The translations under genes were made by a program, and so were the position numbers. The notes beneath the pieces are model-generated. The model did not search any database and had not been told where the DNA came from. It saw only the letters and a list, made by a program, of their open reading frames with translations. This document shows positions 7,990 to 59,115 of a DNA stretch of 64,000 bases, one piece after another (within the stretch, counting starts at the first letter, position 1; the number at the start of each line of letters is the position of its first letter). The DNA comes from Candidatus Omnitrophus magneticus (GTDB lineage Bacteria; Omnitrophota; Gorgyraeia; Tantalellales; Tantalellaceae): contig JYNY01000232.1 of assembly GCA_000954095.1 (NCBI GenBank), positions 20,424-84,423 of the forward strand, in the 5' to 3' direction.

Positions 7990-10602
7990 TTAAGCCGCGA
8001 TTAATGCCTGTCTCGCTTGGATATTATATTGTTCAATAATATCCTCAGAAACTTTCAAACTAGAAGGTAAAACCATAACAATATAACGGATAGTTTTTAA
8101 AATGTCTTGTGCCGCGCCATTAAGCAAAAGTTCTGTGTCGAAAATATTTTCATACTGATCTTTCACAAATTTCAGTATAGGAACATAAACTGAATTTATT
8201 TCATCTTCTTTAACGTCTAACGGAATACTCGCTGTCGCTAAAACTATATTTAACATGCCTACCATTTTAAGTAAATACCCTTCTAAGCTACCGGTATTGC
8301 CTACTCCTTGAATTGTCAAATTTATCTCTCCATACCCGAACTCACGCCCGTTCTCCCGAGTCTCAACAGCTATTAAAAAATTCCTACCGCCCTTATTAGA
8401 TGAAAATGGCATAGCCTTAATACACGCGCCTGTTTTCTCATTAAACATACGGCTGTATTCTTTTATTATTTCTATCTGCCCCTCGTTTAATCTGGATTCA
8501 TCATATCTTATCGTGTATTCCAATATTTTTTTAGACAGCACAGGATACAGCAAATCAAACCTCAAAAGGCGCTCAAAATTAATATCATTGCTAACACTAG
8601 TATCTATTTTATTTATTGCCTGTTTTCCTTTTTTTGAAACGACAATCAGGGTTGCCGCTTGTTTAAAAATTTTTTTCCATAAAACGCGGCCGTCATTATC
8701 TCTAATTTGTCTTAAAATAAATTCATATACTTCTTCATTTCTTCGAGCTGTGTCCCATAATAAAATATCAGCAATACTAGCCACATGTTCTTTATAAGCC
8801 AAAACAACACTTTCGCATGTGTTTGCAATCAAAACCGCTTTTTTATTTTCACTCAGAAGGGTTATTGCTTTTGAAATAATTTTTAACGATTTAGAAACTA
8901 TTAAATTTAATTCTCTTAAGCTATATCCGGCCTCGAGACTCGGCGCTATTTCATTTTTCTTTAAATATATTCCCCTTAAAGACGCGACTCCTGACATAAT
9001 AATTAAATCATATTTTTGAAAATCAGAAATATTATTGGCATCACCCTTATAAATTTTTACATTATTTTTTACTAAAATATCTCGGACAGAATTTTTATAC
9101 GACGGCTCGACGTCAATTCCGGTAAGCGCGCACCCGGCTTCTTTTGCCACACTGTATAACGCCGCTAAAAAAACACAATCTCCCGCGCCTATTTCTAAAA
9201 TGCTTTTAATATTATTTTCCTTTAAAGCCTTTGCCAGCGCGCAGTGAATATCCTGAGTCCCGTCAAAAAACCTCGCCCCAAGATTTGAAAAAATCCGCGC
9301 CAAAATTTCTTTATAACCGTCATGCGCCGCGTTTACGTTTAAAAGTTTATTCGATTCAAGAAACTTCCCGGAAGCTATATACATTTTTTCAAATTCTACG
9401 GCGCGGCGTGTCTCTAAAAAATCCATATTTGTCTCATTTTTAATATGACCTTTTTCTTTGCCGCGAATTTTATTTATTTTTAAAACAAGTTCTCCATTTT
9501 CTTTTATTACAGCTAAATCATACTTTTCTATATCCGAAAAATTAATATCTTCTTCAATAATCTCAACATTATTATTTTCCAATAAATAGTCAACGCCATT
9601 GCTATCCATGACATCACTATCTTCATTACTAACACACATAATTTTACCGCCGGCCTTTTTTAACGCGCCAGCGATACTGCATAAAAAATAAACATCTTCT
9701 CCTTCCATTTGAAAAATACTTTTTATGTTATTTTTTTTGAAGGCCTCGACTAAAGACATTTCCAATTCATAAACTTGGGTAAAATCCTGCATATTTAAAT
9801 GATAAAAAAGTTCCGCTAAAATTTTCTTGTATTCAATGGGAATATCAATACTATTAGATTTTTGCTGAATATAAATAAACTTTTCGGCAAGCTGATACAT
9901 CGCCCGCATTTTTTCAGGTTCAAAATTATTCTCCTTCAAATTTTCTTCCAGCGCGCCGCTACTTTTTTCTTTTAGCGGACTTAATTCTTTTTTTCGCGCA
10001 AAAAGAATTGCTTCATTCAAAGTTTTATGAGAACTAAATATATTTAAAAAATCAGGGTATTTTTGCTTTATAGTTTCTATAATTTTTTCATATGTTTCAT
10101 TCGGCATTTTGGAAATCAACTTTTCACGCTTAAAAAGAAAAACGCGTAACGCGTTCACCAAAATACCGTCAATATAATTGTTATCATCCGAACGAACGTT
10201 TAACTCTTTATTCAAAGATATTTTTTCCCGCGCGATTTTCTTAATTTTTTTCACAATATCTTTTTCCGCTAATTTTAAAAAAAATTTTATATCCTCTCTC
10301 CAAACACCCCGGAGAAGCCGTACTTTATCATCAAAAAGTTCCGAAGAAACTAAATGCGTAGCTTGTCCTGAAAAAAGCCGCACACAATCGGTATTACTTT
10401 TTTTTAAAAAATATTTTTCTTCATCCGTAAGAGCGAATCTAATGATATTACCTTGTTTTAAAAAAGTTGTGATTATATCTACTTTAACAGGCGGGTTATG
10501 TGATGCTGGAAAAATTCCTAGGCTGTAAGAACAAATTTCAAACAAAAAAATAAAAATAATAAATAATGAAATGCTTTTTTTAAAGTTAAAATTAAAAAAC
10601 AT
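7990..10602 (-). CDS. Large membrane-anchored protein with tandem methyltransferase-fold modules (first degenerate) and a shared C-terminal domain
   Basis: The track start at 10611 is TTG; the first ATG is at 10600-10602. It has an N-terminal hydrophobic segment (SISLFIIFIFLFEICSYSLGIF). KENNIKSILEIGAGDCVFLAALY...GIDVEP is SAM-MTase motif I (nt ~9170-9205). It is preceded by a paralogous copy, KKNNIKSIFQMEGEDVYFLCSIA (nt ~9685-9718), that lacks the GxGxG. Confidence 0.7.
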   Translation of the reverse strand: MFFNFNFKKSISLFIIFIFLFEICSYSLGIFPASHNPPVKVDIITTFLKQGNIIRFALTDEEKYFLKKSNTDCVRLFSGQATHLVSSELFDDKVRLLRGVWREDIKFFLKLAEKDIVKKIKKIAREKISLNKELNVRSDDNNYIDGILVNALRVFLFKREKLISKMPNETYEKIIETIKQKYPDFLNIFSSHKTLNEAILFARKKELSPLKEKSSGALEENLKENNFEPEKMRAMYQLAEKFIYIQQKSNSIDIPIEYKKILAELFYHLNMQDFTQVYELEMSLVEAFKKNNIKSIFQMEGEDVYFLCSIAGALKKAGGKIMCVSNEDSDVMDSNGVDYLLENNNVEIIEEDINFSDIEKYDLAVIKENGELVLKINKIRGKEKGHIKNETNMDFLETRRAVEFEKMYIASGKFLESNKLLNVNAAHDGYKEILARIFSNLGARFFDGTQDIHCALAKALKENNIKSILEIGAGDCVFLAALYSVAKEAGCALTGIDVEPSYKNSVRDILVKNNVKIYKGDANNISDFQKYDLIIMSGVASLRGIYLKKNEIAPSLEAGYSLRELNLIVSKSLKIISKAITLLSENKKAVLIANTCESVVLAYKEHVASIADILLWDTARRNEEVYEFILRQIRDNDGRVLWKKIFKQAATLIVVSKKGKQAINKIDTSVSNDINFERLLRFDLLYPVLSKKILEYTIRYDESRLNEGQIEIIKEYSRMFNEKTGACIKAMPFSSNKGGRNFLIAVETRENGREFGYGEINLTIQGVGNTGSLEGYLLKMVGMLNIVLATASIPLDVKEDEINSVYVPILKFVKDQYENIFDTELLLNGAAQDILKTIRYIVMVLPSSLKVSEDIIEQYNIQARQALIAA

Positions 10603-10834
10603 ATAACTCAAACCTTATATTATCCTCCCTTATCAAATATTTTAAAAATTATACACTATTTAACTTTAAAAATCAAATAAATTTTAAATTTGCATTAGTA
10701 TTTTTAAAAGCTATAATTTGTCATAAATAAATGTAATTACTAAGCGGATGATAATGAGTTCATCGTGTAAGAAGTAATATTTTTTTATTGCAAAATATTT
10801 TTAAAAAAAATCTTGAGATATAAATTATTTGGGT

Positions 10835-12445: not shown

Positions 12446-15400
12446 TTATAACGATTCCAATACCGCGGCTTCCGCCTGAATATATTCTTTTATCTCACCA
12501 TAATTTATTCGCTGAATTTTCATAAAAATATTTCCTTTAATCAACGCGTCCAACAATTTTTTTGTGTCATAAGAATTAAACGAGCTAGGAGATTCTACTA
12601 ATTGTAAAAATAAACTCTGTATCTCTTTCCCCATTACACTGCCCAATTCACCGTTTCTTTCACTCTCGGACATTCGTGAAAAATCCGCTATTCCTATACC
12701 TAAACTAGAAAGAGCTACTATTGAAAACTTATTATTCATATTTTCGGTTAAAAAATTTCCCGGCACCATTGCCGCCATTTTGCTGACAGTTTCTCGCTCT
12801 CTTGCTACTTCTCCTGCTAAAGTTTTATATTTTTCCATACGCTCATTAAATTCGCGCGAAATCCTGCCGTCAATATCCACTTCACTATTAGCAAAAACAA
12901 GTATTCTCGCGTTATCATTTTCTTTAAAATTTTTTCGGGATGTAACGTCTTCAATTTTTTTATTCATTTCATGAACTGATAAAAAATATATTTTAAGATT
13001 CGCGCCGTATTCTCTGCTTATATACCTAGCGGTTTTATTGTTTACCTTCACATATTCCGCGCCGTTAAACAACTCGTCATTTGTATCAGCCTCTACAAAA
13101 ATATATGTAGGCGCATTATTAGGCCTTACAAGAGACAACACATCCCTGCACGATTTTGCCACATCCGATACTTTATCTTTTGACATCTCAATCAATCGAC
13201 TATTAACTAATTCAGGAAAAACACTGCGTAATACATTATCAGTAAAAAATTTATTAAAAGCATTACGTGTTTCTTTATCTTGACCAGCGAAACTTTTTAC
13301 AGCGAAATCAATATCTCTTTTATTTTGTTCTGATTGAAATTCAGGTGTAATACCATTTTCACCTGTAAGCGCCTTTGAAATAAACCGGGATAATCCAATT
13401 TTAATGATAATATTCCGCGCGTTTTTCTCATTATCCCCTTTAAATCTATCAATCAATATTTTATTTATTCCTATAAATCCATGAGACGCACGGTCCACAA
13501 AAAGGCTATAAGATTCATCAACAAGGCCTATAACCAAATTTTTAGGGATATTATCAATATTTCCCCGCGCGTCTTTTATTGCTTGCTCCATCAAATCTTT
13601 TATTGTATCGGGCGCTATTTCAAGTTCCGAAGAAAGGTATAAATTTACACTTCGCCCAAAAATATCCATGCTAACTTCCCTAATCCCTATATCTTTCGCG
13701 ATTTTCACAAAACCTTCATTATCCTTTATATTGAATATAATTTCGTTCCCGAATTCCGCGTCTTCTTTATTCGCCTTATAATCATTTTTATTAAGTTCCA
13801 TCGCATTAGCTAAAGACACTCTTAGATACAATTCATTATTAATCTCTTTTAAATTCACAATTTTATTAAAGTCTTCTTCTGTAATACCCGCGAAATCCCT
13901 TCTTGAAGAAAGGTCAAGACCCGGCTTCTTCGTTGCGCTAGGCATATTTTTTATTCTTTCATCTTCTTTTAAAATTTCTTCTTTAACCTGCGCTGGAGTT
14001 AAATACCGGCCTTCAGCATCTTTTAAATTATAATTTTTTATAAGCGCCTCTAAATTTAAAAATGGATTATTTATCTCATACCCATAAAAACCCCGCAGTA
14101 AATCAGTATTAGATTCCAACATTTCTAAAAAAAATTTTATTCCTTTGGCTAAATAAACTACCTTCTGACTCGATGGTATCTCTTCTTTTTCACTGCCTGC
14201 CTGTACGTCATTCATAACCTCAAAAGATATTTGTTTTTTACCATCAATAATGCTTATTTTACCATTACAAATTACGCCTGTTTTGCCATTCTCAGGCGTA
14301 AATTCTTTCATAAATAATCCTGAACCATGATCGTCCATTTTGCTCTCCGCTAGAATAAATCTAGGCATAAACCTCCACATTTTTAATCTCAAAGAATCAA
14401 AACCTATTACAAAATTCAAAGAATCATTTTCTTTTAAATTATTTATTTTATATTCATTTATATTTCTTTCATCTCTTGTGATATTTTCCGGTGTCGCGGG
14501 CCGAGGCTTCTTACCTTTCTTCTTTTCTATTTTTTCCCTCTCAGTTGACGTGCGATACTCATAATCATATATTTCATTGTCTTTATATCTCGATGTTTCT
14601 CCAACATTCGAATTCATAAAAATATACAATTCATTAATCTCCGCGGCCTTTACGACCAGTTCCAACTTCATAATCTCTTTTAATTGCTCTATCTCATTTG
14701 TCTCATTAATCTTTGACACAATACCTTTTTCCCTCATTATTTTCGATATCGAGTTTCCGTAAAGAACAAACTTCGAGTGATACTCTTTATTGTATTTTTC
14801 AATAGCTTTAGAAATATTATCATGCACATCTGAAATAATTTTAGATCCCTTAAAAATATTTAAAAAATCAGAATTTCTCTCTAACATTTGCTTAAAATCT
14901 TTACCTGCCTTTAAAAGAGCAAAATATGATTCCACCGGTAAATATCCCGCGGAATTAAATTTTTCAGCCGGTTTAAAAATAATTACCGTTTCATTCCCGA
15001 TTCTTTTTATAAACCCTTCGGCTAAATGAGAAATTCCATCTGTTTCATCACCTTCGGCATGCAATGAAGAAAAATCACGGCTACTCTCTCCCGCGTTAAA
15101 ATAAGGCACGGCCGTATCACCAACTCTAAAATCGCCAATCGTGAATTTTAATACATCTCCATCTTGCAATTGCTCCATACGATTTTCTAATTCTTTTATA
15201 CCTGACAAAATAATCCCTTCTTTAACCTCCTTAAGAGTAAATTCTTTTTTTATAATATCTTTTTGTTTTTTAGCATACTCTTCCGCTACTTTTTCGATAA
15301 CACTTATCATGCTGTCATAAGAATTTATTTTGGATAAATCATCCTGAGATATTTTTGAAAAAATAATCGGCTCTCTACCTTTAGCTATTTCGCCAGTTTT

Positions 15401-18400
15401 CCCGTCTATACTATAAAAAACATTCATTCGCGCGCCGATAAGCCTAGTATAAATATCTTCTTTTTGAAGTTCCGTGTAATCTTTTTTAGTAAACTCTTCC
15501 CAATTTATTTCTTGATATCCTTTAACAAGTCCTGCTTTTCCCAGCACATTTCCCTTACTATCCAAATAGCCGAGTTTCACTAAATCTCCCCATAATCCAT
15601 CATAATCCGCGCAAGACTCCCTCGAAATAGTAATAGATTCATTCGCTTTAACAAGATATCCATTTTTATTCACAAGAATATCCGTGGCCACTACTGCCGG
15701 TTTTTTTAATTTTCTCGCGACATTAGCGGCGTGACTAGTTGTGCCTCCTGAAAGAAAAATCACACCGCTAGCTAACTCAATGGCAGACATATCGCCTTTT
15801 TCAGTTTCCTCCATTACCAAAATAAACGGCCTTGGATTATCCGCCGTATCATTCATTTTTTCCCTGCTTCTTAACTCTCTAAGAGCGTTAGAGGACATCA
15901 CTAATTCTCCGCTTACAGCGCCGTTAGAAGCGGGCTTCCCCTGACTGAGAAGTATTTGCCTGTATAACTCGCTATCCTTTAGCGGCATTTTTAATGATGA
16001 TTTTTGAAATGTCTCCAAATACGGTTTTGCGGTTTCATACGCCTTCTCTTTCAAAATCTTTATTTTCTCATTTTTTATAGCATCCGAAACAGCCCTGTCT
16101 TCTTTGATTTTATTAATCTTTTCTAAAGTTAAATCTCTTATAAATTTAATTCCCATATCTCCATCAACCTGCATATTACGTGTCTGCAGAATATATAATT
16201 TCCCGTTTTCAACAGTAAACTCTATATCCTGCGGAAAACCATAATATTCTTCCAATACTTTCGCGTATTTAGAAAGTTCCCCGGCAATTTCGCCGAAATC
16301 TTTTTCTAAATCATTCCAATTTTTTCCTTCTTCTAATCCTGAAACAAGCTCTTCTCCTAATGATCTTGCCCAATTAGCCTCAAATACATTTTCACCTGAA
16401 GTGCTATTACGGGTATTTAAAATACCTGAAAAAGAATTTTTTGTATCTATTTCCAAACCCGATTGTTTAGATAAATAATCTATAACGTCTTGTTTAACAT
16501 CCCCCGCTTCATGTATGATATTTCCCTTTTCATTCCTTACGTCTTTTGTATATTTAGGAACACTCGCGTATCGCATTATTTGGATATTAACAGCTGTTCC
16601 TAGATTATCCGGCACTAAAAATCCGCTAGTCCTTCTTCCGGATTTCGCGTCAATACTATCCCATGAACGAAATACCGCTTCAACCGCGGATATCAAAGAC
16701 TTTTCATCATATATGTCTAGAATTGTATCCATTGCTCCGGGCATGGATAACGGCGCTCCGCTTCTAACTGAAACAGGCCGGCTGTTATTCTGTTCGCGTA
16801 ATTTTTTAAAAAATTCCAATATACTATTTTTTAAATCTTTAAGCTCATCAGAGTCATTCAATAGTAACGGCATATTTTTTTGTATTTCTTCTTTTTCTTG
16901 TTCACTAAGCGCCATGCCTTGTTTCTTCTCGCGTTTTTCTACTTCTTCTGAAAAACGCTCATTCCATACCTTATACCATTTTCTAAAAGCGTTTGTAGTT
17001 ATAATAAAGGCATCAGGAACCGGAAGGCCTTTTTGATGTTTCATATCAAGAAGTCCGGCGCCTTTCCCCCCTAACGCGCCTAAAAATCTCTCACTCCCTT
17101 TAACCAATTTATTCAATTCATCTTTATTTGTTATATCTACTATATCCATATTTGAATCTAAAACATCAACATCTTTAAAATATGATAATCCCTTATCACC
17201 CGCGTAAAATTTAGAAATTACATTACTGCCGTAAGCATTCTTTAACGCCTTATAGAGATCGGAATTAGCCATCGCAAAAAGTTCAAAATCTTTACTAGAT
17301 TCAAATTGAGTTATCGCTATATTTTTACCTGAAAATTTTTCAGCTCCGCGGACAACAGTAAAAAAATCAACATTATCTGCTGAATAATCATAAAATATTG
17401 ATTTTAAGCCGTCCTCAAACCCTATGTTATCCTCGTTCTTTTTAGATACAAGTTCCAATAGCGCCAGTTGTTCAGATATTTTTTGTATTTTATTTTTATA
17501 TTTAGTGTTTACCGTCACCGCGCCGTTTTCTATTTTATACAAACTGCCGTTAGATTTATTATTTATGATATCCAATATACTTCCAACTTGCGGCGCGTTG
17601 CCTTTATAAAGAGATTTAATCCCCTCGGCAAATTCTACATTAAGCGCCCTAATAATATTTGAATGCATAGCGCCTTCTTTAGCCGGAGCGTATTCTATTA
17701 CTTCACCGGTTATTCTATCTTGAAAAATAACACTCTTTGATGGATTCTCTATTCTGACGGCACCCGTATTAATCGAATCCATTAGATTTTGAAACGCGGA
17801 TTCCATCCGTACTTTACTGGCATTTTCTTCTTCTGTAGGGGCATTCTTATCTTTAAACTGAAAATTAAAATTCGGATTCGCGCCGGATAAAGTCCCGTGT
17901 ATCCATTTCACGTTACTAGCCCCCGCTGACTCATAGAGCGGTGACTGTTGAATATTCTTCATTAATACGCTATGAAAAACCGTTGACGGGCCCATTGCTA
18001 TTTTTATAGTTTTAGAATTATCCTTACCTATAATTTCACATATAACAAAAGAAAAAACATCTCCGGCGGCGGCTTTAAGTTTTTCGCCTATTTGTTCCAT
18101 TGTAAGGAATGTGGGACTAGTATCATTTGACGTGTAAAAATCAAAAGATTCTCCTTTAAAAACGCTTTCAACATTATTTTTCTTTTCATGCAAAAAGGCG
18201 CTTTCATAAAGTATCGTTTTTATACTGCCGTCACTCATTTTAAAAGAAACATTAACTTTTCCATCCACGAGGTTTATATTCCCGACACTTTTTATATTCT
18301 CTATAACTTTATGTCCTTTTGCCTCTCCCGCTTTTAAAATTTCCTCCTGAATTAATTTATCCAATGCCTCAATCGCGGCCTTTCCGGCCTGAATAACACC

Positions 18401-20017
18401 CGCGCCCCAGACTGACTCTCCTAAAGCATTAAATTTACTGGCTATTTGTATCATTGAAGTAGAAACTAAAAGAGAATTAAACTTAGTAATAATATCCGGC
18501 ATCCCTCCGGCTAAAAATTTAAAATAATGAGTTTCTTCTTTACCTGAACGGAACCTAGGCATTATGGATACATATGAAATACCGTTTGACTCGAAAAGTT
18601 TTAAAAGATTATCCGTATGAAAACCGCCTGTCATCATTATAGCCGCGCTCGAGCCGTTAGATAATTCCGTGAAACGTAAATTTGATAAAAAAGCAGAGTC
18701 TCTAGCAAAAGAAATTTTAAAAAAATCCTCTATTCTTTCGCGGTAAATATCGAGATTGCCAATATTTTTATCTAAATTTATTTTAAGATTATGCGCGGAG
18801 CTAAACCGGTTAATAATATCAATAAAAAATTTTATTGAGAAATCTGGTCTTTTAGATAAATATGATTTATACTGGCTCACAGTCAAAGAAAAATCAAAAA
18901 TATTTTTAATAATACCTACCCGGTTAGAAAGATCGTCAATTTCGCGTTCGCGGGGCTCCCTGAAAAGTTTTTCTTTTACCATATCTTCCAGACGGGATAA
19001 TTCTTCGGCGGTTTGGGCGTGATCCACTTTTTCATATAAAGAAACATATTCAATATACTGCTTTAAATTAATATAATTTTTAATATTAAAATTTATAGCC
19101 TTAGCGCTGGAAACAAGATATTCATAATAATCTTTGCGTGATATTCTATCGGCTTTATAATCCAGCGTCTTTTCTATAAATTTATTTTTTTCATACTTTG
19201 AAAATTTCTTTTCCAATTCTTCCGCGATAATCTTCGCATCTTTATCGGCTCTATCAAAATCTATTGTCTTTTCTTTTAAAAGGGATTGTTCCAATATATC
19301 CACATTCACGAAATACTTTTTATCTACACCCTTCTCTTTGGATATTTTTAGTAAAAATTTTAAATATTCCAAAAATTCTATATCTTGATTTTTATACCCC
19401 TCAAAAATTTTATCCGCGCCTATAAGTTCTTTAGAATAAACGACTCGTTTAATTTCAGACAAAGCTTCGCTTAATTGCCCAATATATTTTTTCGCCTCTT
19501 TTTTAAAAGTTAATGAATCCCTGAAAACTTTTAAATTTTTGAGATATAATTCTTTATCCTCAATACCCCATAATGTTACTTCTCCCATATTATGCACAGC
19601 AAAAACTTCAGCTCCATTCATTTCGCCGTTACGCAAAAAATAATCCGCTATATCCATCCGTATATCTTTATTTTTTACTTCCTTAAAAACATCCAAATTA
19701 TATGATCCCGCGCCGCCTTCAAGATTAATTAAATCTATACCATAATGCCTGACACAGCGGTCAATAATATCATTTATTTTTTTCTGACATTCATAGTTAG
19801 TATGCGCGTCCTGAACATGTATTATTAATTTATCCGGTCCGCCTTTATACCTATACTTGATATCACCTAAATACTCCGGCAAATCAAAATTCTGAATATC
19901 TAAAACATTTAAAATCCCCTCCGCTCGATCCGTAGAAAAAAAATATTTTAAGCCGGCGCAATATCCCAGTGCCGTTAAAATCAATGCTATAATAAAAATA
20001 CATCTGAACTGTTTCAC
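12446..20017 (-). CDS. Giant (2523 aa) membrane-anchored protein with an embedded PPDK-type ATP-grasp and phosphohistidine (dikinase) module
   Basis: GTG start at 20015-20017 with AGGAG 9 nt upstream, followed by an N-terminal hydrophobic segment. PPDK N-domain motifs GGKGAGLLDM, VSVRSGAPLSMPGAMDTILDI, GTAVNIQIM and QDIEFTVENGKLYILQTRN lie at nt ~16175-17065. The swivel-domain motif GGTTSHAANVARKLKKPAVV lies at nt ~15680-15945. No PEP/pyruvate TIM-barrel motifs follow. Confidence 0.85.
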   Translation of the reverse strand: MKQFRCIFIIALILTALGYCAGLKYFFSTDRAEGILNVLDIQNFDLPEYLGDIKYRYKGGPDKLIIHVQDAHTNYECQKKINDIIDRCVRHYGIDLINLEGGAGSYNLDVFKEVKNKDIRMDIADYFLRNGEMNGAEVFAVHNMGEVTLWGIEDKELYLKNLKVFRDSLTFKKEAKKYIGQLSEALSEIKRVVYSKELIGADKIFEGYKNQDIEFLEYLKFLLKISKEKGVDKKYFVNVDILEQSLLKEKTIDFDRADKDAKIIAEELEKKFSKYEKNKFIEKTLDYKADRISRKDYYEYLVSSAKAINFNIKNYINLKQYIEYVSLYEKVDHAQTAEELSRLEDMVKEKLFREPREREIDDLSNRVGIIKNIFDFSLTVSQYKSYLSKRPDFSIKFFIDIINRFSSAHNLKINLDKNIGNLDIYRERIEDFFKISFARDSAFLSNLRFTELSNGSSAAIMMTGGFHTDNLLKLFESNGISYVSIMPRFRSGKEETHYFKFLAGGMPDIITKFNSLLVSTSMIQIASKFNALGESVWGAGVIQAGKAAIEALDKLIQEEILKAGEAKGHKVIENIKSVGNINLVDGKVNVSFKMSDGSIKTILYESAFLHEKKNNVESVFKGESFDFYTSNDTSPTFLTMEQIGEKLKAAAGDVFSFVICEIIGKDNSKTIKIAMGPSTVFHSVLMKNIQQSPLYESAGASNVKWIHGTLSGANPNFNFQFKDKNAPTEEENASKVRMESAFQNLMDSINTGAVRIENPSKSVIFQDRITGEVIEYAPAKEGAMHSNIIRALNVEFAEGIKSLYKGNAPQVGSILDIINNKSNGSLYKIENGAVTVNTKYKNKIQKISEQLALLELVSKKNEDNIGFEDGLKSIFYDYSADNVDFFTVVRGAEKFSGKNIAITQFESSKDFELFAMANSDLYKALKNAYGSNVISKFYAGDKGLSYFKDVDVLDSNMDIVDITNKDELNKLVKGSERFLGALGGKGAGLLDMKHQKGLPVPDAFIITTNAFRKWYKVWNERFSEEVEKREKKQGMALSEQEKEEIQKNMPLLLNDSDELKDLKNSILEFFKKLREQNNSRPVSVRSGAPLSMPGAMDTILDIYDEKSLISAVEAVFRSWDSIDAKSGRRTSGFLVPDNLGTAVNIQIMRYASVPKYTKDVRNEKGNIIHEAGDVKQDVIDYLSKQSGLEIDTKNSFSGILNTRNSTSGENVFEANWARSLGEELVSGLEEGKNWNDLEKDFGEIAGELSKYAKVLEEYYGFPQDIEFTVENGKLYILQTRNMQVDGDMGIKFIRDLTLEKINKIKEDRAVSDAIKNEKIKILKEKAYETAKPYLETFQKSSLKMPLKDSELYRQILLSQGKPASNGAVSGELVMSSNALRELRSREKMNDTADNPRPFILVMEETEKGDMSAIELASGVIFLSGGTTSHAANVARKLKKPAVVATDILVNKNGYLVKANESITISRESCADYDGLWGDLVKLGYLDSKGNVLGKAGLVKGYQEINWEEFTKKDYTELQKEDIYTRLIGARMNVFYSIDGKTGEIAKGREPIIFSKISQDDLSKINSYDSMISVIEKVAEEYAKKQKDIIKKEFTLKEVKEGIILSGIKELENRMEQLQDGDVLKFTIGDFRVGDTAVPYFNAGESSRDFSSLHAEGDETDGISHLAEGFIKRIGNETVIIFKPAEKFNSAGYLPVESYFALLKAGKDFKQMLERNSDFLNIFKGSKIISDVHDNISKAIEKYNKEYHSKFVLYGNSISKIMREKGIVSKINETNEIEQLKEIMKLELVVKAAEINELYIFMNSNVGETSRYKDNEIYDYEYRTSTEREKIEKKKGKKPRPATPENITRDERNINEYKINNLKENDSLNFVIGFDSLRLKMWRFMPRFILAESKMDDHGSGLFMKEFTPENGKTGVICNGKISIIDGKKQISFEVMNDVQAGSEKEEIPSSQKVVYLAKGIKFFLEMLESNTDLLRGFYGYEINNPFLNLEALIKNYNLKDAEGRYLTPAQVKEEILKEDERIKNMPSATKKPGLDLSSRRDFAGITEEDFNKIVNLKEINNELYLRVSLANAMELNKNDYKANKEDAEFGNEIIFNIKDNEGFVKIAKDIGIREVSMDIFGRSVNLYLSSELEIAPDTIKDLMEQAIKDARGNIDNIPKNLVIGLVDESYSLFVDRASHGFIGINKILIDRFKGDNEKNARNIIIKIGLSRFISKALTGENGITPEFQSEQNKRDIDFAVKSFAGQDKETRNAFNKFFTDNVLRSVFPELVNSRLIEMSKDKVSDVAKSCRDVLSLVRPNNAPTYIFVEADTNDELFNGAEYVKVNNKTARYISREYGANLKIYFLSVHEMNKKIEDVTSRKNFKENDNARILVFANSEVDIDGRISREFNERMEKYKTLAGEVARERETVSKMAAMVPGNFLTENMNNKFSIVALSSLGIGIADFSRMSESERNGELGSVMGKEIQSLFLQLVESPSSFNSYDTKKLLDALIKGNIFMKIQRINYGEIKEYIQAEAAVLESL

Positions 20018-20096: not shown

Positions 20097-22274
20097 TTAC
20101 CTCTCGCTACGACTCAAATCAGACAAAAACCGCGGCGGCACATTATACCCAAGACTAACAGCCTTATCACAATATTCACGGGCTAATAAAAAATTTTTCT
20201 CCGTGTAATAAAATACCGCTAAATTAAAATACGGCCGGGGGTCTCTGGAAGAAAATTCCAGCGCCTTTTTAAAAGAAAACACTGCCAATTCTTTATTGCC
20301 TATTTTGAAACTTATAAGCCCCAAATTATTATAAGCATCTTTATTTTGAGGATTCCGTTCCACGGCTTTTTCGCATAAATTAAGAGCTTCTTCTTTATTT
20401 CCTAAATCAGCTAAAATCATGCCTAAATGATAATATGGCATTACATCATCCGGCGCTATATTTATAAGGTTATAAAAAATCTCAACGGATTTTTTCTTTT
20501 CACCCATAAGAGCGTATGTAATACCCAAATTTTGATAACTCAAAGGATACGATGGATCTATGGTTATCGCCTTTTGATATAATTCTATCGCCCGTAAAAA
20601 ATCTTTTTTATTCCGATATATCGTAGCTAAATTGTTATACGCGAATTTATCCGTGGGATTTATTTTAATTGCCGCTTCATAACTTTCTAAAGCATCATTC
20701 ATCCTGCCAAGCTCACTATAAACATTCGCGAGATTATTATAAGCCTTCCCATTTTCAGAATTTAATTTTATGGCTCTTTTATAAAAAGTTATCGCGTTCT
20801 CCTTCTCTCCCTTGGAGTTATAAAGATTCGCTAAATTATAAATCGTTTTAACATCATTAGAATTTTTCTCAAACGCTTTTATATAAAATTTTTCAGCTGT
20901 TTCCAAATCGCCTTTTTCAGAAAACAAAATGCCAAGATTGTTATACCCATTCGCGTCATTAGGGGAAAGCTCTATTGATTGTTCATATAAAGGAATCGCT
21001 GATTCAATACGGCCTTCTTTCACATACGCCAAAGCAAGATTATTAAGCGCCTTATAACTTTCGGGATTATATTTTATTATTCTTTCATAAAAAGTTATTG
21101 GATCTTTCCAATAAAAATTTTGGAAGAATGTTGAAAAACCGTAAAAAACGCATAAAACCGATGTAAGGCCTATAGCCGCTAATTTAAAAAGACGCGTTTC
21201 ATAAATTTTTATAATAATACCGGCTAAGCCGATAAAAAAACTAATTGAAGCAATATACAAAAAATGTTCTGCCATAAAAAACGGCGCTGGGAAAATATTC
21301 GCGTACGGAATTAAATTTATAAAAAACCAAAAAATAAAAAATGCCACTGCCTTCTGTTTTCTAGATAAAACCGCGTATAATAAAAAAACCGCGGTAATAC
21401 TACAGCCGAAAATAGCCTTAAAGTTAAATGGGCTAAAAATCTTATCGCCATAATCCATATGTAATCCAAATGGCAAAATCATAATCCTAAAATATTCAGT
21501 AACCGCTACAAAAAAACCGGGTATTCTAGCTAAAGAGCCGTCAAGATTTGACGGAGAAAGAACCGGCGCTAAAATAGTAGCGCGCATGACTAAATACAAA
21601 AACGTAATAAACGCGATAGGCGCGAATGCTCTAATAATTATTTTCTCGCGATACGCGTAATGATACGCTATTATTAAAATAGGAAAAATCACGCTTACTT
21701 CCTTCGAAAGAACAGCCAAAATATAACTTAAAATCATCAAACAATAAAAAAATATATTCTTGGATTTCATAAAATTCAGATATAACGCCATACCGGATAA
21801 AATAAAAATAGCGGATAAAGTGTCAGCTCTTGCTGAGATATACGATACAGACTCAACATGAATAGGATGCGCCGCGTATAAAATACCGCATAAAAATGCT
21901 AAAACCCTATTTTTAAATAACGCATTTATAAACCACAAAAGAGCCATCCCCGCTAACATATGAAACACCACTGATAACGCGTGATATCCTCGAACATCTA
22001 ATTTCCACAAAGAATAATCAAACATATAGGTAAGCATTTGAATAGGACGATAATAAGTGGACGGGCCGTCATCTCCGCCGGCACCGATATCTTTTATAAG
22101 AACATCCTTAATATTATTCCACTTTTTTATATGATTATTATTCTCTACTAAAAACTCATCATCCCAAACAAATTTTCCGTTTAAAGAACTACTGTATGCG
22201 AAAATAACAATCAAACAAATACACGTCGCACTGAATACATAAAAATATTTATTTTGAGAAAAATTTTTAAACAT
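20097..22274 (-). CDS. TMTC/PMT-like polytopic membrane protein fused to a C-terminal TPR array (putative protein O-glycosyltransferase)
   Basis: 725 aa. The N-terminal ~400 aa contain multiple hydrophobic helices with WDDEFLV and YYRPIQMLTYMFDY motifs, typical of GT39/TMTC-like enzymes. The C-terminal ~330 aa are 34-residue TPR repeats (AYNNLA...G....A...Y..AI...P). Confidence 0.75.
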   Translation of the reverse strand: MFKNFSQNKYFYVFSATCICLIVIFAYSSSLNGKFVWDDEFLVENNNHIKKWNNIKDVLIKDIGAGGDDGPSTYYRPIQMLTYMFDYSLWKLDVRGYHALSVVFHMLAGMALLWFINALFKNRVLAFLCGILYAAHPIHVESVSYISARADTLSAIFILSGMALYLNFMKSKNIFFYCLMILSYILAVLSKEVSVIFPILIIAYHYAYREKIIIRAFAPIAFITFLYLVMRATILAPVLSPSNLDGSLARIPGFFVAVTEYFRIMILPFGLHMDYGDKIFSPFNFKAIFGCSITAVFLLYAVLSRKQKAVAFFIFWFFINLIPYANIFPAPFFMAEHFLYIASISFFIGLAGIIIKIYETRLFKLAAIGLTSVLCVFYGFSTFFQNFYWKDPITFYERIIKYNPESYKALNNLALAYVKEGRIESAIPLYEQSIELSPNDANGYNNLGILFSEKGDLETAEKFYIKAFEKNSNDVKTIYNLANLYNSKGEKENAITFYKRAIKLNSENGKAYNNLANVYSELGRMNDALESYEAAIKINPTDKFAYNNLATIYRNKKDFLRAIELYQKAITIDPSYPLSYQNLGITYALMGEKKKSVEIFYNLINIAPDDVMPYYHLGMILADLGNKEEALNLCEKAVERNPQNKDAYNNLGLISFKIGNKELAVFSFKKALEFSSRDPRPYFNLAVFYYTEKNFLLAREYCDKAVSLGYNVPPRFLSDLSRSER

Positions 22275-22664: not shown

Positions 22665-25600
22665 ATGCCTTATGTTATAAAAAAAAATATCTTAAATTTA
22701 ATAAAAATTTTGTTTAATACATTATTTTTTATTTATACGTTAAACTCCTATACTTATTCTGAAATACTTCCAACAACTCTTCAAATTCCATCTTTTTTCA
22801 ACACAATAAAAGATGCTGAATTTTTTGAAAATTTATTATTAGCGCATTTAAAATACGCGACTACAGGAATAGATATAAACAATTTAAATTACAAATTAAT
22901 GCCTGCTTTTTCAGACGATATAAATGGTGTAATAAACTTTCAAGAAAAAAAGCGCGAAAATAATTATTGGGCAATTCCCTGCGCTATTCACATTAAAACA
23001 AACAATTGCACTTTTGAATATACCGCTACCATAAAAGAGAATGAAGATATATCAATACAAAGCATATTGCCAAAAAATTTTTTATCCCAAAATAATACCG
23101 TCAAAAATAAATCAAAAAATCAAATATCAGAAGAAAATTATTATGCGGATAGGCCGCTTGATGGGATTCCCAAGTCAGAAATAAAAAATATACTCATATT
23201 AACTGAAGATAAAATTTTAGGAGTAAAGCTTGGCGAAACAATCATAGAGTTATGGCCGCTCGCCACACCATTACTAAAAAAATTTCCAGACGCTAATATT
23301 TTAATAGCTTCTGAATTCTCTGAAATTTTTAACGGAAAAACATTTCACAATAAAATAAAAATACTGCCTCAAGAAACTCTCGCGGAATTAAGAACTTCAC
23401 CAGAAAAAATTGAAAAATTTTTTAATACCAATAATTTTGATTTGATTTTTTATATAGGGATGCATGCCGGCATTGTAAAAAAAATAGTTTATTCTAAAAA
23501 CAATACAAAACCAAAGCCGTATCTTTGCCAAATAGTATCCCCATTAAGCATAACACAGGCCTTTTCTACGGCTATTAAAGAAACAAATTTAATGTCTGAC
23601 AATAACTATAATTTTATTGCCTTTTGGGACACGCATGGGAAAAAATACATAATCAATACAACTAATATCTTCAAAAATATTATGAAATCATCAAAAAATT
23701 CAAATTTTGAATTTGGATGGGCAGGTATATGGAATTTAACTATTAAAATGTATGAAAGCCTCGGGCTTAAAGTAAACCGTAAAAATTTATTACAACTTAA
23801 ACTTTCAAACGAAGAAACTTTCGGCGCTATTAAATGGCTAAAAAACTTATTTGACGAATCAACCAAAGAATATAAACATATAAAATTTGATCCCCAAAAA
23901 AAAATTATTGTTGTCAATGTATACGCTGTCACGCAAAAGAACATTCTCACCGAAGATGAATGGTCAGGCATAATCGCAAAACTAGCTCATGAAATAAAAG
24001 ACGCGTATTTTATTTTTCCAAGAGGCGGAAAAATGGACCCTGATTATGAGTATGTTGAAAGAATCGTCCGTAACGCGAAAATAATTTTAAAAGAGGATGT
24101 TACGCACAAAGATAATCTAAATGATATACAATTAGTCCTTCCAAGAAAAAATATATATCCGTATATGCATGATCTATTGGGCATCTCAAACGCTGTTGTT
24201 TCATTAGACACAGGCTTCAGCCATCTTGCTTCAGGAGTTTATAATCTTCCGTTATGCCTTATAACAAGCCCTAATATAATCCATTGGATACCCCCTAAAG
24301 ACAATATCTTCACAATCTTTTTTCAAGGCGTATTTCAAAATGCTTCTCGCTATCTAAAAGAAACTGAAATAAAAAAACAGGAACGAATAAACAATGAAAT
24401 TAAAAACTTAGCGGATTGGCTGAATAAACAAGCAAGCATGAAACACACTCTTTCTAAAAGACTTTCTTCTCTTTCTGATGAATACGCAAGCATACTTGAT
24501 AAAAATCTATTAAATCATTATTCAATAGACGCGCCTTTGGATGAAAAAAAAATACATGATTTCGCCGCGAATATAGTTAAACAATTAAAGCTTCCTGAAA
24601 GTATTACACCTGAAATAAAATTTGTTAATACCAGCGAGCAAATCGGAATTGAATTATCCAGATTTTCAATAAAGTTACGCGCGTTTTCTAACAAAAAAAC
24701 ATATTTATTAATAGACGCAAACAATAAAAATCAAGAATACCTATCCGATATTTTAAATAATGAGTCAAACAAAATTGAATTTATCCATGAATTACTAGGC
24801 CGATCTATAACACGTATAACCTTTCCCGAATTCAGCGATAAGGACTTAAACACAAAAGACTCTATCCCGCAAAATTATTTTAAAAATTCTATAAAGACAC
24901 GAAATATCTTAGAAGAACTAATAGCGCGGCTAATAACTATAGAAGCTATTTTAAAACTTTCACGTGAAAATATTAATACCGTTTCCAATAAAGAAATAGA
25001 ATCATTATTAAAAATATACATCCCCGGCAATACAACATTAACACTGGAAAATATAAAAAAAATATTAGAACACAATACTCAAAACACGGAATTATCAAAT
25101 ATATTTTTATCCGATATCCCGTTAAATCAGCAGGAAAAAATATTATCTCTTTTAAATGAAAAATATCTGCCGCGTCTTAATTCATTATTCGCGTATTGGC
25201 GGAATGAAGAAGTAGCAATTAAAGAGCCATTAACCCTACTCCCTAAAAAAGAAATAAAAAATGTACTATTATATTATGACAATGTAGCGCCGTTTAAACT
25301 CGGAGAAGTCATAATGGAACTTTGGCCGCTAGTAGCAGGATTTCTTCAAGACTTTCCTGACTCTAAAATATATATAGCGGCGCCGCTAGCGGAAGTTTTT
25401 AAAGGCCAATATTTTGGAGAAAGGATAAAAATATTGGACCATTCGAAAACCACACTATTAAAATCCTCCGCTGAAACAGTCACGCATTTTGTTTCAGATA
25501 ATCATATAAATCTTATTATATCGCTTGATACTACAAGAAATAATTTCATAAAAACTTTAAGTAATTATCCACGCCTCATGGATAAACCTTATTTACTACA

Positions 25601-27170
25601 AATTGATTCTATAACTAACAACTTATCAACATTTCTTCCCACGATTGACAAAAATATTACAAAAAAATTTTCATTTCATGACAAATTAAACATAAAATAT
25701 AAAATTTCAGGATCAGAAAATTTATTAAAAACTATTACCAGCCCAGATGACTATTCTACCCCTGCTTTATATACTACCATAATAAATCAACCACAAAACA
25801 TTTTTCCTCTAGCAGGGGGATGGCTCTTATCAATAGAAAGATGCCGTATTCTAGGGCTTAATATATCTAAAGACAATATGCCTGAAATGAAAATATCTAC
25901 GGATGAATCTGAAAACGCTACAAAATGGATATGGGATATATGCCAAAAAGAAAATCACTGCACCATGAATTACAATAAAAAAATAGTTATTATTAATACC
26001 TACGCGGTAACACAAAATAGTTTTTTATCAGAAGAAGAGTGGGCAAATATTATACAAAGGATTATAACAAAAACTAAAAATATTATTTTCGTCTTCACTC
26101 ATGGCGGAAAAATGGATGAAGACTATTACCATATTGAGAGAATAATAAAAAAAATAAAAATAAAATTAGCCAGCGACACATCATTAAATTATAAACATTC
26201 TATAAAAAAAATAATTCTCACCAGAGAAGATATATCTCCCAAAATACATAACTTAATGGGAATAGCAAGCGCGTGTGTAACAATTGACACAGGTTTTAGT
26301 CATATGGCAAGCGGTATATTCAACATTCCTACTGCTATTTTTACGTCTAAAAATATAGAACATTGGCTACCTCCAAGAAAAAATATAATACCATTATACC
26401 TCCTTACCACTAACGATTATTTAATGTACGATTTCACATGGAATGAAAAAGAAATATCAGCCCGCAAAAAAAAACTCTATAACCACACTCAAAAAATAAT
26501 AGATTGGATAAATAGCGACAAGATAAAAACATTAGGAGAAATTCTTGACAACATCAATAATAACGATGCTTTAAGAATAAAAAACAACAAACATTCAGAA
26601 ATACTAAAAAATTTCATTGATTCATTATTATCCATTACTATAAATAAAAAAATAATTCTCGCGTTCGGATACGAAGACCTGTCTTCCCGCAATACTAAAT
26701 TATCAGGAATTATAAAAAGTTTTAAATTTTTAAAAAACCACATTTATTATAAAAGATTTCTTCAGAATTTTATTGTTATAGAATCTTCCAAGCGGGAAAT
26801 ATGGGGAAAGATAGAACCGTATACAAAGGATGCCGATTCATCTATATTTTTATTCAGCAGTAACACCAAAGACATAAATAAAGATGGGCTAAAATCTAAT
26901 AATATTCATAAAATCATTATTAATGACACAGGATTCCCTCCTGACGCGTATTATCCGCTTTTCGAAATAATATTATTATCCATTGCTCATAAATATCCTG
27001 ACAATAACATCGTGAACATGAAAGAGATTTTCGATAAGTCTAATATTTTATATATGGAAGAAAAAAATAAAGAATTGATTTTTTATCTTTTGCCGAATCC
27101 TATAATCCTGCGTGAATCTGATTTAATAAAAGCATACGCGTATCGAAAAAAACTAATTACCGCGTTATAA
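22665..27170 (+). CDS. 1501-aa protein with two tandem GT9 (heptosyltransferase)-like modules and a shared C-terminal domain
   Basis: N-terminal hydrophobic segment. Module 1 spans nt ~23180-24320 and module 2 nt ~25250-26400, and they are clear paralogues (KLGETIIELWPLATPLLKKFPDANILIA / KLGEVIMELWPLVAGFLQDFPDSKIYIA; VSLDTGFSHLASGVYNLP / VTIDTGFSHMASGIFNIP). These motifs resemble the GT9 LGD...P...LK..FP and DSGpmHLAaAlg.P signatures. Confidence 0.75.
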   Translation: MPYVIKKNILNLIKILFNTLFFIYTLNSYTYSEILPTTLQIPSFFNTIKDAEFFENLLLAHLKYATTGIDINNLNYKLMPAFSDDINGVINFQEKKRENNYWAIPCAIHIKTNNCTFEYTATIKENEDISIQSILPKNFLSQNNTVKNKSKNQISEENYYADRPLDGIPKSEIKNILILTEDKILGVKLGETIIELWPLATPLLKKFPDANILIASEFSEIFNGKTFHNKIKILPQETLAELRTSPEKIEKFFNTNNFDLIFYIGMHAGIVKKIVYSKNNTKPKPYLCQIVSPLSITQAFSTAIKETNLMSDNNYNFIAFWDTHGKKYIINTTNIFKNIMKSSKNSNFEFGWAGIWNLTIKMYESLGLKVNRKNLLQLKLSNEETFGAIKWLKNLFDESTKEYKHIKFDPQKKIIVVNVYAVTQKNILTEDEWSGIIAKLAHEIKDAYFIFPRGGKMDPDYEYVERIVRNAKIILKEDVTHKDNLNDIQLVLPRKNIYPYMHDLLGISNAVVSLDTGFSHLASGVYNLPLCLITSPNIIHWIPPKDNIFTIFFQGVFQNASRYLKETEIKKQERINNEIKNLADWLNKQASMKHTLSKRLSSLSDEYASILDKNLLNHYSIDAPLDEKKIHDFAANIVKQLKLPESITPEIKFVNTSEQIGIELSRFSIKLRAFSNKKTYLLIDANNKNQEYLSDILNNESNKIEFIHELLGRSITRITFPEFSDKDLNTKDSIPQNYFKNSIKTRNILEELIARLITIEAILKLSRENINTVSNKEIESLLKIYIPGNTTLTLENIKKILEHNTQNTELSNIFLSDIPLNQQEKILSLLNEKYLPRLNSLFAYWRNEEVAIKEPLTLLPKKEIKNVLLYYDNVAPFKLGEVIMELWPLVAGFLQDFPDSKIYIAAPLAEVFKGQYFGERIKILDHSKTTLLKSSAETVTHFVSDNHINLIISLDTTRNNFIKTLSNYPRLMDKPYLLQIDSITNNLSTFLPTIDKNITKKFSFHDKLNIKYKISGSENLLKTITSPDDYSTPALYTTIINQPQNIFPLAGGWLLSIERCRILGLNISKDNMPEMKISTDESENATKWIWDICQKENHCTMNYNKKIVIINTYAVTQNSFLSEEEWANIIQRIITKTKNIIFVFTHGGKMDEDYYHIERIIKKIKIKLASDTSLNYKHSIKKIILTREDISPKIHNLMGIASACVTIDTGFSHMASGIFNIPTAIFTSKNIEHWLPPRKNIIPLYLLTTNDYLMYDFTWNEKEISARKKKLYNHTQKIIDWINSDKIKTLGEILDNINNNDALRIKNNKHSEILKNFIDSLLSITINKKIILAFGYEDLSSRNTKLSGIIKSFKFLKNHIYYKRFLQNFIVIESSKREIWGKIEPYTKDADSSIFLFSSNTKDINKDGLKSNNIHKIIINDTGFPPDAYYPLFEIILLSIAHKYPDNNIVNMKEIFDKSNILYMEEKNKELIFYLLPNPIILRESDLIKAYAYRKKLITAL

Positions 27171-31892: not shown

Positions 31893-32077
31893 AGATGCCC
31901 TCCTTATATTGGCGCTGTCGCAAAATAAATTTTTTTGCCGCCCACTCATCAACATCTTTGGCAAAAAAATTTATTTTACGACAGCGCCTTATTCCCCTCA
32001 CCACCACTCACAATCAGCATATTACGGATATATCCAGTCATATTATACTCCTAAAAATAGCCCATAAAAACAAAAAA

Positions 32078-56256: not shown

Positions 56257-56419
56257 AACAAACTCCTTATTAAGTGTTATAAAAATCCTTATATTATCTT
56301 CTCAAATTTATTTTGAAAGAAAAAATATTTTTTTCGTGTCTATATAAATATAGGCAATAAAATCAGCATCGTCAAATTTTAGGAATATTTTTTTCTGAAG
56401 TAATATAATTTTTATAAAA

Positions 56420-57304: not shown

Positions 57305-57380
<76 letters not shown>

Positions 57381-59080: not shown

Positions 59081-59115
59081 TCGGTTCTTTCAAAAAAATT
59101 ATTTTTAAAAAAATG

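Follow-up and report, generated by a model that had tools for sequence, protein, structure and literature searches.

The window analysed here is a 64,000-nucleotide stretch of the genome of Candidatus Omnitrophus magneticus (contig JYNY01000232.1, positions 20,424 to 84,423 of the forward strand). On its minus strand lies a gene for a protein of 2,523 residues, in which an ATP-grasp domain and a phosphohistidine swivel domain of the pyruvate, phosphate dikinase (PPDK) type form a cassette near the middle of the chain, between an N-terminal and a C-terminal domain that are shared with long proteins from other genomes. The NCBI record, named 'Pyruvate phosphate dikinase, PEP/pyruvate-binding domain protein' (PEP, phosphoenolpyruvate), is identical to the product of the open reading frame (ORF) at 12446-20017 except at the start residue. 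The gene and its parts are listed below by position in the window.

12446..20017, minus strand: whole ORF, 2523 residues, GTG start, 'PPDK domain protein' (ORF listing, translation and NCBI match)
19937..20011, minus strand: signal peptide or signal anchor, residues 3-27, MKQFR and then a hydrophobic stretch, possible cleavage between ..YCAG and L (hydropathy scan)
18449..19891, minus strand: constant N-domain, residues 43-523, about 480 residues (homologue alignments, AlphaFold2 model)
17078..18340, minus strand: middle region, residues 560-980, no known domain, candidate acceptor-binding region (local BLAST with orthologues P0002 and P0003)
16160..17077, minus strand: PPDK-type ATP-grasp nucleotide-binding domain, residues 981-1286 (Pfam, NCBIfam, PPDK alignment)
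15833..16159, minus strand: helical linker from ATP-grasp to swivel, residues 1287-1395 (aligned to PPDK residues 340-420)
15593..15832, minus strand: phosphohistidine swivel domain, residues 1396-1475, with His1429 (codon 15731-15733) in GGTTSHAANVAR (Pfam, NCBIfam, PPDK alignment)
14693..15247, minus strand: internal repeat A, residues 1591-1775, orphan sequence (phmmer, Smith-Waterman)
13940..14482, minus strand: internal repeat B, residues 1846-2026, orphan sequence (phmmer, Smith-Waterman)
13295..13663, minus strand: mini-zincin-like domain of about 120 residues, residues 2119-2241 (HMMER search of 1.8 billion representative proteins)
12449..13147, minus strand: constant C-terminal domain (C-domain), residues 2291-2523, about 230 residues (homologue alignments, structure model)

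An open frame of 2523 residues has a chance probability of about 1e-83 at 34% G+C, and this one runs unbroken over 7.5 kb with a base composition that is uniform along its length. A long protein whose only source is one contig in one record, with a stretch at residues 1476-2118 that has no homologue in any database sequence searched, might be suspected of being an artefact, either an assembly or multiple displacement amplification chimera or several genes miscalled as one fusion. Two orthologues speak against this: P0002, found in two Joint Genome Institute (JGI) metagenomes, and P0003, from an NCBI metagenome-assembled genome. Both have the layout N-domain, middle region, ATP-grasp, swivel, unconserved spacer of about 500 residues, C-domain. 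P0003 is colinear with the query across residues 39-1443, P0002 aligns at the N-domain, middle region, cassette and C-domain, and both carry equally long unconserved spacers at the corresponding position and are followed by homologous downstream genes that match the one in the window. Because of this colinearity and synteny in independent assemblies, the uniform composition and the 7.5-kb open frame, we consider the assembly chimera, which the original prediction had named as one way in which it could fail, to be ruled out, and an artefact of either kind to be extremely improbable. A 173-residue ORF on the plus strand (16515-17036), wholly within the ATP-grasp coding region, is most likely a spurious shadow ORF.

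A Pfam scan of the whole protein returns PPDK_N (PF01326) at residues 981-1286 (E 3.3e-36) and the PEP-utilizers mobile domain (PF00391) at residues 1396-1449 (E 1.8e-12), and nothing else even at E<=1. Aligned to solved structures, the cassette is colinear with residues 8-468 of Clostridium symbiosum PPDK. The contexts kept from that enzyme are GGKG (Lys22), VSVRSGA..SMPGxMDT (Arg92), FRSWD, GTAVNxQ, QDxEFT...LYxLQTRN (Glu323, Gln335, Arg337) and GGxTSHAA (Thr453, Ser454, His455), with GGTTSHAANVAR aligned to the His455 context. The sole clear difference within the module is in the ATP-grasp helical sub-domain (about residues 110-200 of PPDK), which is reduced to five residues. The original prediction, made from the sequence without database searches, had proposed a PPDK ATP-grasp and swivel-histidine module, and the alignment bears it out as complete, colinear with PPDK and furnished with the Lys22, Arg92, Glu323, Gln335, Arg337 and Thr-Ser-His455 contexts; its concern that catalytic histidine or ATP-grasp residues might prove degenerate was answered by finding all residues examined intact. 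The nine motifs it quoted are all present, within a few nucleotides of the positions it gave: GGKGAGLLDM (residues 983-992), VSVRSGAPLSMPGAMDTILDI (1082-1102), GTAVNIQIM (1140-1148), QDIEFTVENGKLYILQTRN (1263-1281) and GGTTSHAANVARKLKKPAVV (1424-1443) in the cassette, IIHVQDAH (65-72) and MMTGGFH... (461-485) in the N-domain, and two duplication motifs (1709-1724 and 1964-1979) after the swivel. In the orthologues P0002 and P0003, only about 30% identical, the ATP-grasp motifs and the catalytic histidine are intact as well, and no swivel domain in the family described below has lost the histidine. Such retention argues for selection on catalysis, and the cassette apparently works as a unit that transfers phosphate from ATP to histidine.

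In PPDK and PEP synthase the swivel domain is followed by a PEP/pyruvate-binding TIM barrel. No match to the barrel model PEP-utilizers_C (PF02896) occurs anywhere in the protein, even at E<=1. The match to the full-length PPDK model TIGR01828 ends at model position 496 of 865, with 173.5 bits against a cut-off of 843, and the PEP synthase model TIGR01418 yields 86.6 bits against a cut-off of 740. By this direct comparison with full-length models the barrel is taken to be missing. A PDB sequence search finds no relative for the post-swivel region, and residues 1476-2290, searched exhaustively with HMMER against 1.8 billion representative proteins, yield no homologues for the approximately 640 residues from 1476 to 2118. 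A barrel is thus not detectable by sequence in residues 1476-2290, in agreement with the earlier claim that none follows the swivel. It follows that a reading as a pyruvate/PEP enzyme cannot hold for cassettes of this kind, and that the second site, to which the swivel would deliver its phosphate, must bind a substrate other than pyruvate.

Two further elements bear on what that substrate might be. One is the middle region, residues 560-980, which is conserved in just the two other members that have the PPDK layout, P0002 and P0003, and has neither a PDB sequence match nor a Pfam domain. More broadly, no Pfam match, to a carbohydrate-binding module (CBM) or anything else, occurs in residues 524-980 or 1476-2118. 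The other is a gene found next to the orthologues. In the genomes of both P0002 and P0003 the adjacent downstream gene encodes a protein of 670-680 residues with a class I S-adenosylmethionine (SAM)-dependent methyltransferase domain, and a homologue lies downstream in the window:

7990..10611, minus strand: downstream partner, 873 residues, signal-anchored, class I SAM-methyltransferase-like, motif I ILEIGAGDC at residues 476-484 (homology to the next genes in two other genomes)

The shared homology spans E-values of 1e-67 to 1e-82 in comparison with loci L001 and L002/L003. The copy at L002 passes the gathering score for both Methyltransf_25 and Methyltransf_11 in Pfam. SAM motif I and the acidic residue that follows it are kept in all three partner copies, each of which also has a signal-like N-terminal segment; the N-terminal 400 residues of the partner have no assigned function.

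In every characterised relative, namely PPDK, PEP synthase, rifampin phosphotransferase (RPH), glucan water dikinase (GWD) and the two-component HpeHI/PpsAB, the swivel histidine takes the beta-phosphate at the ATP-grasp domain and delivers it to a second site (PMC12167813; PMC13553574). By analogy, we propose that the cassette, driven by ATP, uses its phosphohistidine to phosphorylate an acceptor other than pyruvate, a proposal to which we give an even chance of being right. The original prediction had suggested that this acceptor may be a polymer or a protein. The ATP-grasp domain would use ATP to phosphorylate or pyrophosphorylate His1429, in the manner of PPDK, PEP synthase, RPH and GWD, and the swivel would then carry the beta-phosphate to the second, non-pyruvate site. 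That site would most probably be the region at residues 560-980, directly N-terminal of the ATP-grasp domain, which is favoured because it is conserved among orthologues and which would follow the logic of GWD, where substrate-binding modules stand N-terminal of the catalytic domains. Less probably, it would be provided by the repeated orphan domains that follow the swivel, or by a partner acting in trans. The conserved SAM-methyltransferase-like neighbour suggests that the two enzymes may modify one substrate, by phosphorylation and by methylation; as export signals are present on both, this could, speculatively, be an envelope or surface polymer.

Several observations weigh against this proposal. 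Pfam and NCBIfam recognise no acceptor domain of the RPH or GWD type, and the order ATP-grasp, swivel, other sequence is that of PPDK rather than of RPH or GWD. Beyond the swivel the sequence is unconserved even among orthologues, contrary to what one would expect of a catalytic site. Only three loci show the link to the methyltransferase, and in the window a gene for the Era GTPase, on the opposite strand, separates the giant gene from the methyltransferase gene. Lastly, the predicted export of both proteins puts ATP- and SAM-dependent domains where their cofactors would not be expected. A search for a terminator between the giant gene and Era found none.

The sequence C-terminal of the swivel has features of its own. 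A phmmer search seeded with residues 1591-1775 recovers residues 1846-2026 at E<1e-3, and the Smith-Waterman comparison of the two repeats has z = 5.4, with none of 300 shuffles reaching the observed score. The internal duplication, already suggested by the original prediction, is therefore real but weak. In the HMMER search with residues 1476-2290, only the segment 2119-2241 matched other proteins. This domain recurs in other very long proteins, sometimes in four copies, and its homologues bear the pattern ..FEDH..GFIGIN..GLxHELSHExTG..FExxQ, which is the HExxH signature of zincins; one of them weakly matches the WLM family. The O. magneticus protein has a degenerate site, GLSRFISKALTG, with SRFISKA in place of the HELSHE of homologues, and because of this its peptidase-like domain is presumably inactive. 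Elsewhere the domain may represent an uncatalogued family of mini-metallopeptidases that process long proteins.

A clearly degenerate domain in the same chain raises the question of whether the dikinase cassette, too, is non-catalytic, that is, a nucleotide sensor, a structural element or a module in decay within a protein that is mainly a scaffold. The loss of the PPDK helical sub-domain from the ATP-grasp, a score far below the equivalog cut-off (173 versus 843 bits), and flanking regions that are orphan and fast-evolving would suit such a reading. The low scores, however, follow trivially from the absence of the barrel and the sub-domain, and the intact ATP-grasp and phosphohistidine residues of the query and of orthologues at about 30% identity would be unexpected without selection for catalysis. 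We regard a non-catalytic cassette as distinctly improbable.

A homology search with the whole protein recovered 72 other proteins, 1,400-4,300 residues in length. All that come from named organisms belong to Omnitrophota, with the exception of one from Candidatus Auribacter (Auribacterota). Nearly all match only the first 500 or so residues of the query, at 21-43% identity, and about 35 of the 72 share the last 230 or so residues as well. The N-domain is N-terminal in 72 of 72, directly behind a positively charged and hydrophobic stretch, and the C-domain stands at the extreme C-terminus in every homologue that bears it. Between the end domains the cargo, as given by precomputed Pfam annotation, varies from member to member: Ser/Thr kinases, ABC1/UbiB kinases and FHA domains; M48 peptidase, HD domains, superfamily-1 helicase and methyltransferases; PGM, PFK, TIM, PGK, class II FBPase, UPRTase and a sigma-70 factor; and, in seven proteins, PPDK_N with PEP-utilizers and no barrel. 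A further search, seeded with the N-domain alignment, found cargo-free members of about 890 residues, consisting of signal, N-domain, short linker and C-domain, and N-domain-only members of about 480-510 residues, in which a textbook cleavable signal peptide (cleavage between ..SYA and E, ..LYA and A, or ..IYA and E) precedes the N-domain.

From the shared ends, the varied cargo and the cargo-free members, therefore, the end domains can be viewed as a constant frame into which cargo is inserted. Because N-domain-only members with cleavable signals exist, the N-domain is predicted to be an autonomous exported unit. The O. magneticus protein has a signal or anchor, an N-terminal N-domain and a C-domain at its extreme C-terminus, as the frame is defined, and by its sequence it belongs to a modular carrier family of Omnitrophota and Auribacterota in which two constant ends frame interchangeable cargo. 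This context was absent from the original prediction, which had recognised neither that the end domains frame a large family whose cargo is interchangeable nor that the protein starts with a Sec-type signal or anchor. It had spoken of a 'shared C-terminal domain'. A survey of the window with BLASTP, phmmer and profile searches over all six-frame ORFs finds no second copy of either the N-domain or the C-domain; the C-domain is indeed shared, but with homologues in other genomes only.

An AlphaFold2 model of the N-domain, built on a 35-sequence alignment, reaches a pLDDT of 88 and shows an alpha/beta core, with strands contributed by both ends of the domain, split by an all-helical insertion of about 290 residues. 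Its invariant residues are D70, H72, E100, E137, G151, Y158, R439, G464, G465, H467 and P487. In the model they lie at the ends of core strands, and they include both of the N-terminal motifs noticed in the original prediction, which are the most conserved stretches of the 480-residue domain. That prediction had compared the N-terminal 500 or so residues with the TraB/GumN/TIKI superfamily. In families of the Tiki/TraB/ChaN/EreA type, strand 1 is followed by a (D/E)xH motif and strand 2 by a Glu; an Arg-Asp helix comes next, and a late strand leads into GGxH. Conserved residues of the N-domain have the same order, with the His/Glu/Arg/His constellation present as D70, H72, E100, R439 and H467, and would likewise be extracytoplasmic; it differs in that its first motif is QDAH, not GTxH, and in the helical insertion that splits its core.

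The evidence for this relationship converges but stays below threshold. The N-domain consensus matches PF04187 (ChaN, Tiki superfamily) at E 2e-4 with 21.8 bits, under the gathering score of 27.7; the match falls in the correct C-terminal register, and four of the 35 N-domain members also match weakly. The N-domain has no match in NCBIfam or in a PDB profile search, and hhalign detects none to the Escherichia coli TraB-family protein YbaP. Foldseek, in a search dominated by the helical insertion, lists the EreA-like Bcr135 structures 3b55 (E 0.32) and 2rad (E 1.7) and HopBA1 5t09 (probability 0.54), none of them significant. The conservation of both motifs and the sub-threshold PF04187 match point towards a TraB/GumN/TIKI relationship, to which the YbaP, NCBIfam and Foldseek comparisons add nothing significant. 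The N-domain is possibly a remote Tiki/ChaN/EreA-like domain, a weakly supported lead and not an assignment of membership. Matches of the insertion to alpha-pore-forming toxins and SMC proteins were rejected as generic helical matches, with TM-scores of about 0.1. The C-domain is modeled as a small alpha/beta sandwich with a helical sub-domain (pLDDT 87, pTM 0.87) and has no meaningful match in Pfam, in a profile search of PDB sequences, or among PDB folds, where the top Foldseek match reaches E 3.5e-3 with a TM of 0.29.

Members of the family also occur side by side. Immediately upstream of P0002 is a 1548-residue member, P0019 is the neighbour of P0007, and P0016 that of P0009; head-to-tail arrays with differing cargo occupy L002 5300-9946, L004 2088-15652 and L005 1-17173. 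Loci L002 and L004 share synteny downstream (aldo-keto reductase, glycoside hydrolase family 1) and yet hold different family members. An explanation by swapping of cargo at one locus was rejected, the closest relative of P0007 being the 1548-residue gene of L002 and not P0002; what the loci show is variable tandem arrays. Dikinase parts appear to be shuffled independently across the family: P0027, P0047 and P0059 have the swivel histidine domain N-terminal of the ATP-grasp, in GWD-like order, P0057 combines a swivel and a PEP-utilizers_C barrel with a metallophosphatase and has no ATP-grasp, and P0016 carries a PEP-utilisers_N domain, of the type in phosphotransferase system enzyme I, with a swivel.

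Such an assortment of parts invites an alternative in which the cassette belongs to a split PPDK or PEP synthase and feeds its phosphohistidine to a barrel encoded elsewhere, either as a stand-alone protein or on another family member, with the end domains uniting the pieces and pyruvate/PEP interconversion as the net reaction. P0057 has just the complementary set, P0016 offers a second partial set, paralogues stand in tandem arrays, two-component dikinases are known to act in trans (PMC12167813), and West-Roberts et al. (2023 bioRxiv) take the PPDK_N domains of Omnitrophota giant proteins to be pyruvate/PEP enzymes. Yet the 64-kb window has no barrel-bearing ORF and no family paralogue, P0057 comes from a different and distant genome, and the conserved neighbour is a methyltransferase, not a barrel protein. 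The known two-component dikinases, moreover, fuse the swivel to the acceptor domain and not to the ATP-grasp. On balance a split enzyme seems to us quite unlikely.

The cellular location of these proteins was judged by simple hydropathy and charge counts, not by a trained predictor. By these measures nearly all family members have the features of a signal or anchor, their Lys plus Arg counts show a positive-inside bias (2.9 versus 1.1), and a hydropathy scan finds no further membrane segment past the N-terminus in the O. magneticus protein or in its methyltransferase-like partner. The positive-inside rule and the signal peptides of the N-domain-only relatives predict that the N-domain is extracytoplasmic. 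Because the N-termini are of the export type and no further membrane segment follows, the ATP-dependent cassette and its SAM-dependent partner would also lie outside the cytoplasm. The same puzzle of topology has been reported for Omnitrophota proteins of more than 10,000 residues (West-Roberts et al. 2023 bioRxiv; Nielsen and Lui 2026 bioRxiv).

One way to accommodate this topology is to suppose that the cargo of the family acts outside the cytoplasm of the producer, at its surface or in a host or prey, and that an acceptor-less cassette phosphorylates foreign targets or just burns ATP to AMP. This overlaps in chemistry with the phosphorylation of a non-pyruvate acceptor proposed above and differs in location and target. 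The signals and charge bias, the textbook cleavable signals of the N-domain-only proteins, the want of any later membrane segment and the existence of cargo-free chassis proteins are all in line with it, as is the description of Omnitrophota as host-dependent or predatory organisms with exported, very long, multi-enzyme proteins. On the other side, the signal call comes from hydropathy and charge only, sigma-70, PFK and PGK are among the cargo that would have little purpose outside a cytoplasm, gene annotation of the window reveals no secretion-system genes nearby, and O. magneticus, a magnetotactic bacterium with large cells, is not known to be a predator. An exported effector or surface enzyme is therefore an explanation that we consider possible and, taken as a whole, unlikely. 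We are similarly doubtful that the frame of N-domain and C-domain is a dedicated chassis for exporting or displaying cytoplasmic-type ATP- and SAM-dependent enzymes, at the surface or within a host or prey, with cargo that ranges from dikinase cassettes, Ser/Thr kinases and glycolytic enzymes to sigma-70 domains. If it were, the barrel-less dikinase would be an exported phosphorylating effector alongside a co-encoded exported methyltransferase, and the family would constitute a modular system of bacterial effectors or of enzyme display, new as a class.

The gene on the other side of the giant gene encodes a protein with tetratricopeptide repeats (TPR):

20097..22274, minus strand: upstream neighbour, 725 residues, about ten membrane segments in the first 385 residues, at least seven C-terminal TPR repeats; 79 nucleotides from the giant gene (hydropathy, Pfam)

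This TPR gene may be co-transcribed with the giant gene; the linkage was not seen at the other loci examined. A reading of its product as a GT-C glycosyltransferase was dropped, the membrane half being without a Pfam match. Further along, a 1501-residue protein with a weak heptosyltransferase (GT9) domain (22665-27170, plus strand) and a 1592-residue subtilase that starts with a hydrophobic segment (27186-31964, minus strand; Peptidase_S8, E 8e-62) have no domain in common with the giant gene. A glycogen/starch synthase gene (57572-59080, plus strand; Glyco_transf_5, E 3e-83) lies 38 kb from the giant gene and is unlinked to it; its presence predicts that O. magneticus is able to make alpha-glucan, one conceivable substrate for a dikinase. 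A Mu-type transposase (rve and Mu-transpos_C_2) with an adjacent ORF, at 60445-62602 on the minus strand, marks a mobile element near the end of the window. The plus-strand GC skew stays negative through the first 56 kb and turns positive at about 57-62 kb, with a cumulative minimum at about 56-58 kb, where gene orientation switches; this turn at 56000-62000 could be a replication origin or terminus, or strand bias only. The rest of the window consists of housekeeping genes.

Among known systems the best sequence matches are to PPDK (C. symbiosum, PDB 1KBL/2R82) and PEP synthase, which share with the cassette the order ATP-grasp, linker, swivel and the kept motifs. The O. magneticus protein differs in having neither the TIM barrel nor the ATP-grasp helical sub-domain, and in having its cassette embedded at residues 981-1475 of a signal-bearing protein of 2523 residues. 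Barrel-less dikinases with non-pyruvate acceptors are well established, in RPH (PMC4844700), in the two-component systems HpeHI and PpsAB (PMC12167813) and in GWD (PMC13553574), and the prodiginine enzymes PigC and HapC likewise combine an ATP-grasp and a swivel histidine, without a barrel, and act on a non-pyruvate acceptor (PMC13534948). The cassette resembles RPH, HpeHI/CreHI/PpsAB and PigC/HapC in having ATP-grasp and phosphohistidine swivel and no barrel. RPH, however, has its acceptor domain inserted between ATP-grasp and swivel, which are adjacent here. Models for RPH and PigC match the ATP-grasp only (residues 976-1287), with 34-55 bits against cut-offs of 999-1350, and no domain of the rifampin-binding type is found.

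Dikinases of the GWD and phosphoglucan water dikinase (PWD) type are large, multi-domain enzymes that phosphorylate polymers, with substrate-binding modules N-terminal of their catalytic domains (PMC13553574). A conserved region at residues 560-980, N-terminal of the ATP-grasp, would fit that layout. The order in GWD is CBM45, histidine domain, ATP domain, in contrast to the O. magneticus protein, in which the ATP-grasp precedes the histidine domain, and Pfam finds no CBM (CBM45 or CBM20) in the latter.

The L-glutamine kinase Cj1418, from the O-methyl phosphoramidate pathway of Campylobacter, is a further PPDK-like kinase without a barrel. It works alongside SAM-dependent methyltransferases in the decoration of surface polysaccharide, and in this it may offer a parallel to the methyltransferase partner. 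No sequence evidence points to a specific relationship, and genes for the cytidylyltransferase, hydrolase and kinase of the pathway are not adjacent here; the parallel is a lead only.

The closest setting is provided by the very long proteins of Omnitrophota themselves, described as 'Archaeovorins' (West-Roberts et al. 2023 bioRxiv) and as 'multi-enzyme metabolic clusters' (Nielsen and Lui 2026 bioRxiv). They come from the same phylum and likewise join a signal or membrane anchor to enzyme domains of cytoplasmic type and to peptidase domains. PPDK_N is among their 20 commonest domains and has been taken to indicate pyruvate/PEP enzymes (West-Roberts et al. 2023 bioRxiv). Neither the abundance of PPDK_N in these giants nor barrel-less dikinase chemistry as such is therefore new. 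As far as the literature found shows, what is new is the barrel-less nature of the cassettes of this family, which points to phosphorylation targets other than pyruvate; the frame of N-domain and C-domain, which the published studies do not describe, with its cargo-free and N-domain-only members and tandem arrays, which give a concrete handle on how such proteins are built; the conserved methyltransferase partner of the PPDK-type members; and the presence of all these features in one protein of tractable size. The catalogues of giants cover proteins of at least 10,000-30,000 residues, whereas the O. magneticus protein has 2,523 residues and one enzyme cassette. With a partner gene and a single cassette in 2.5 thousand residues, it is far more tractable than giants of 40-150 thousand residues, and it could be used to test where in the cell such proteins reside and whether their ATP-dependent enzymes work outside the cytoplasm.

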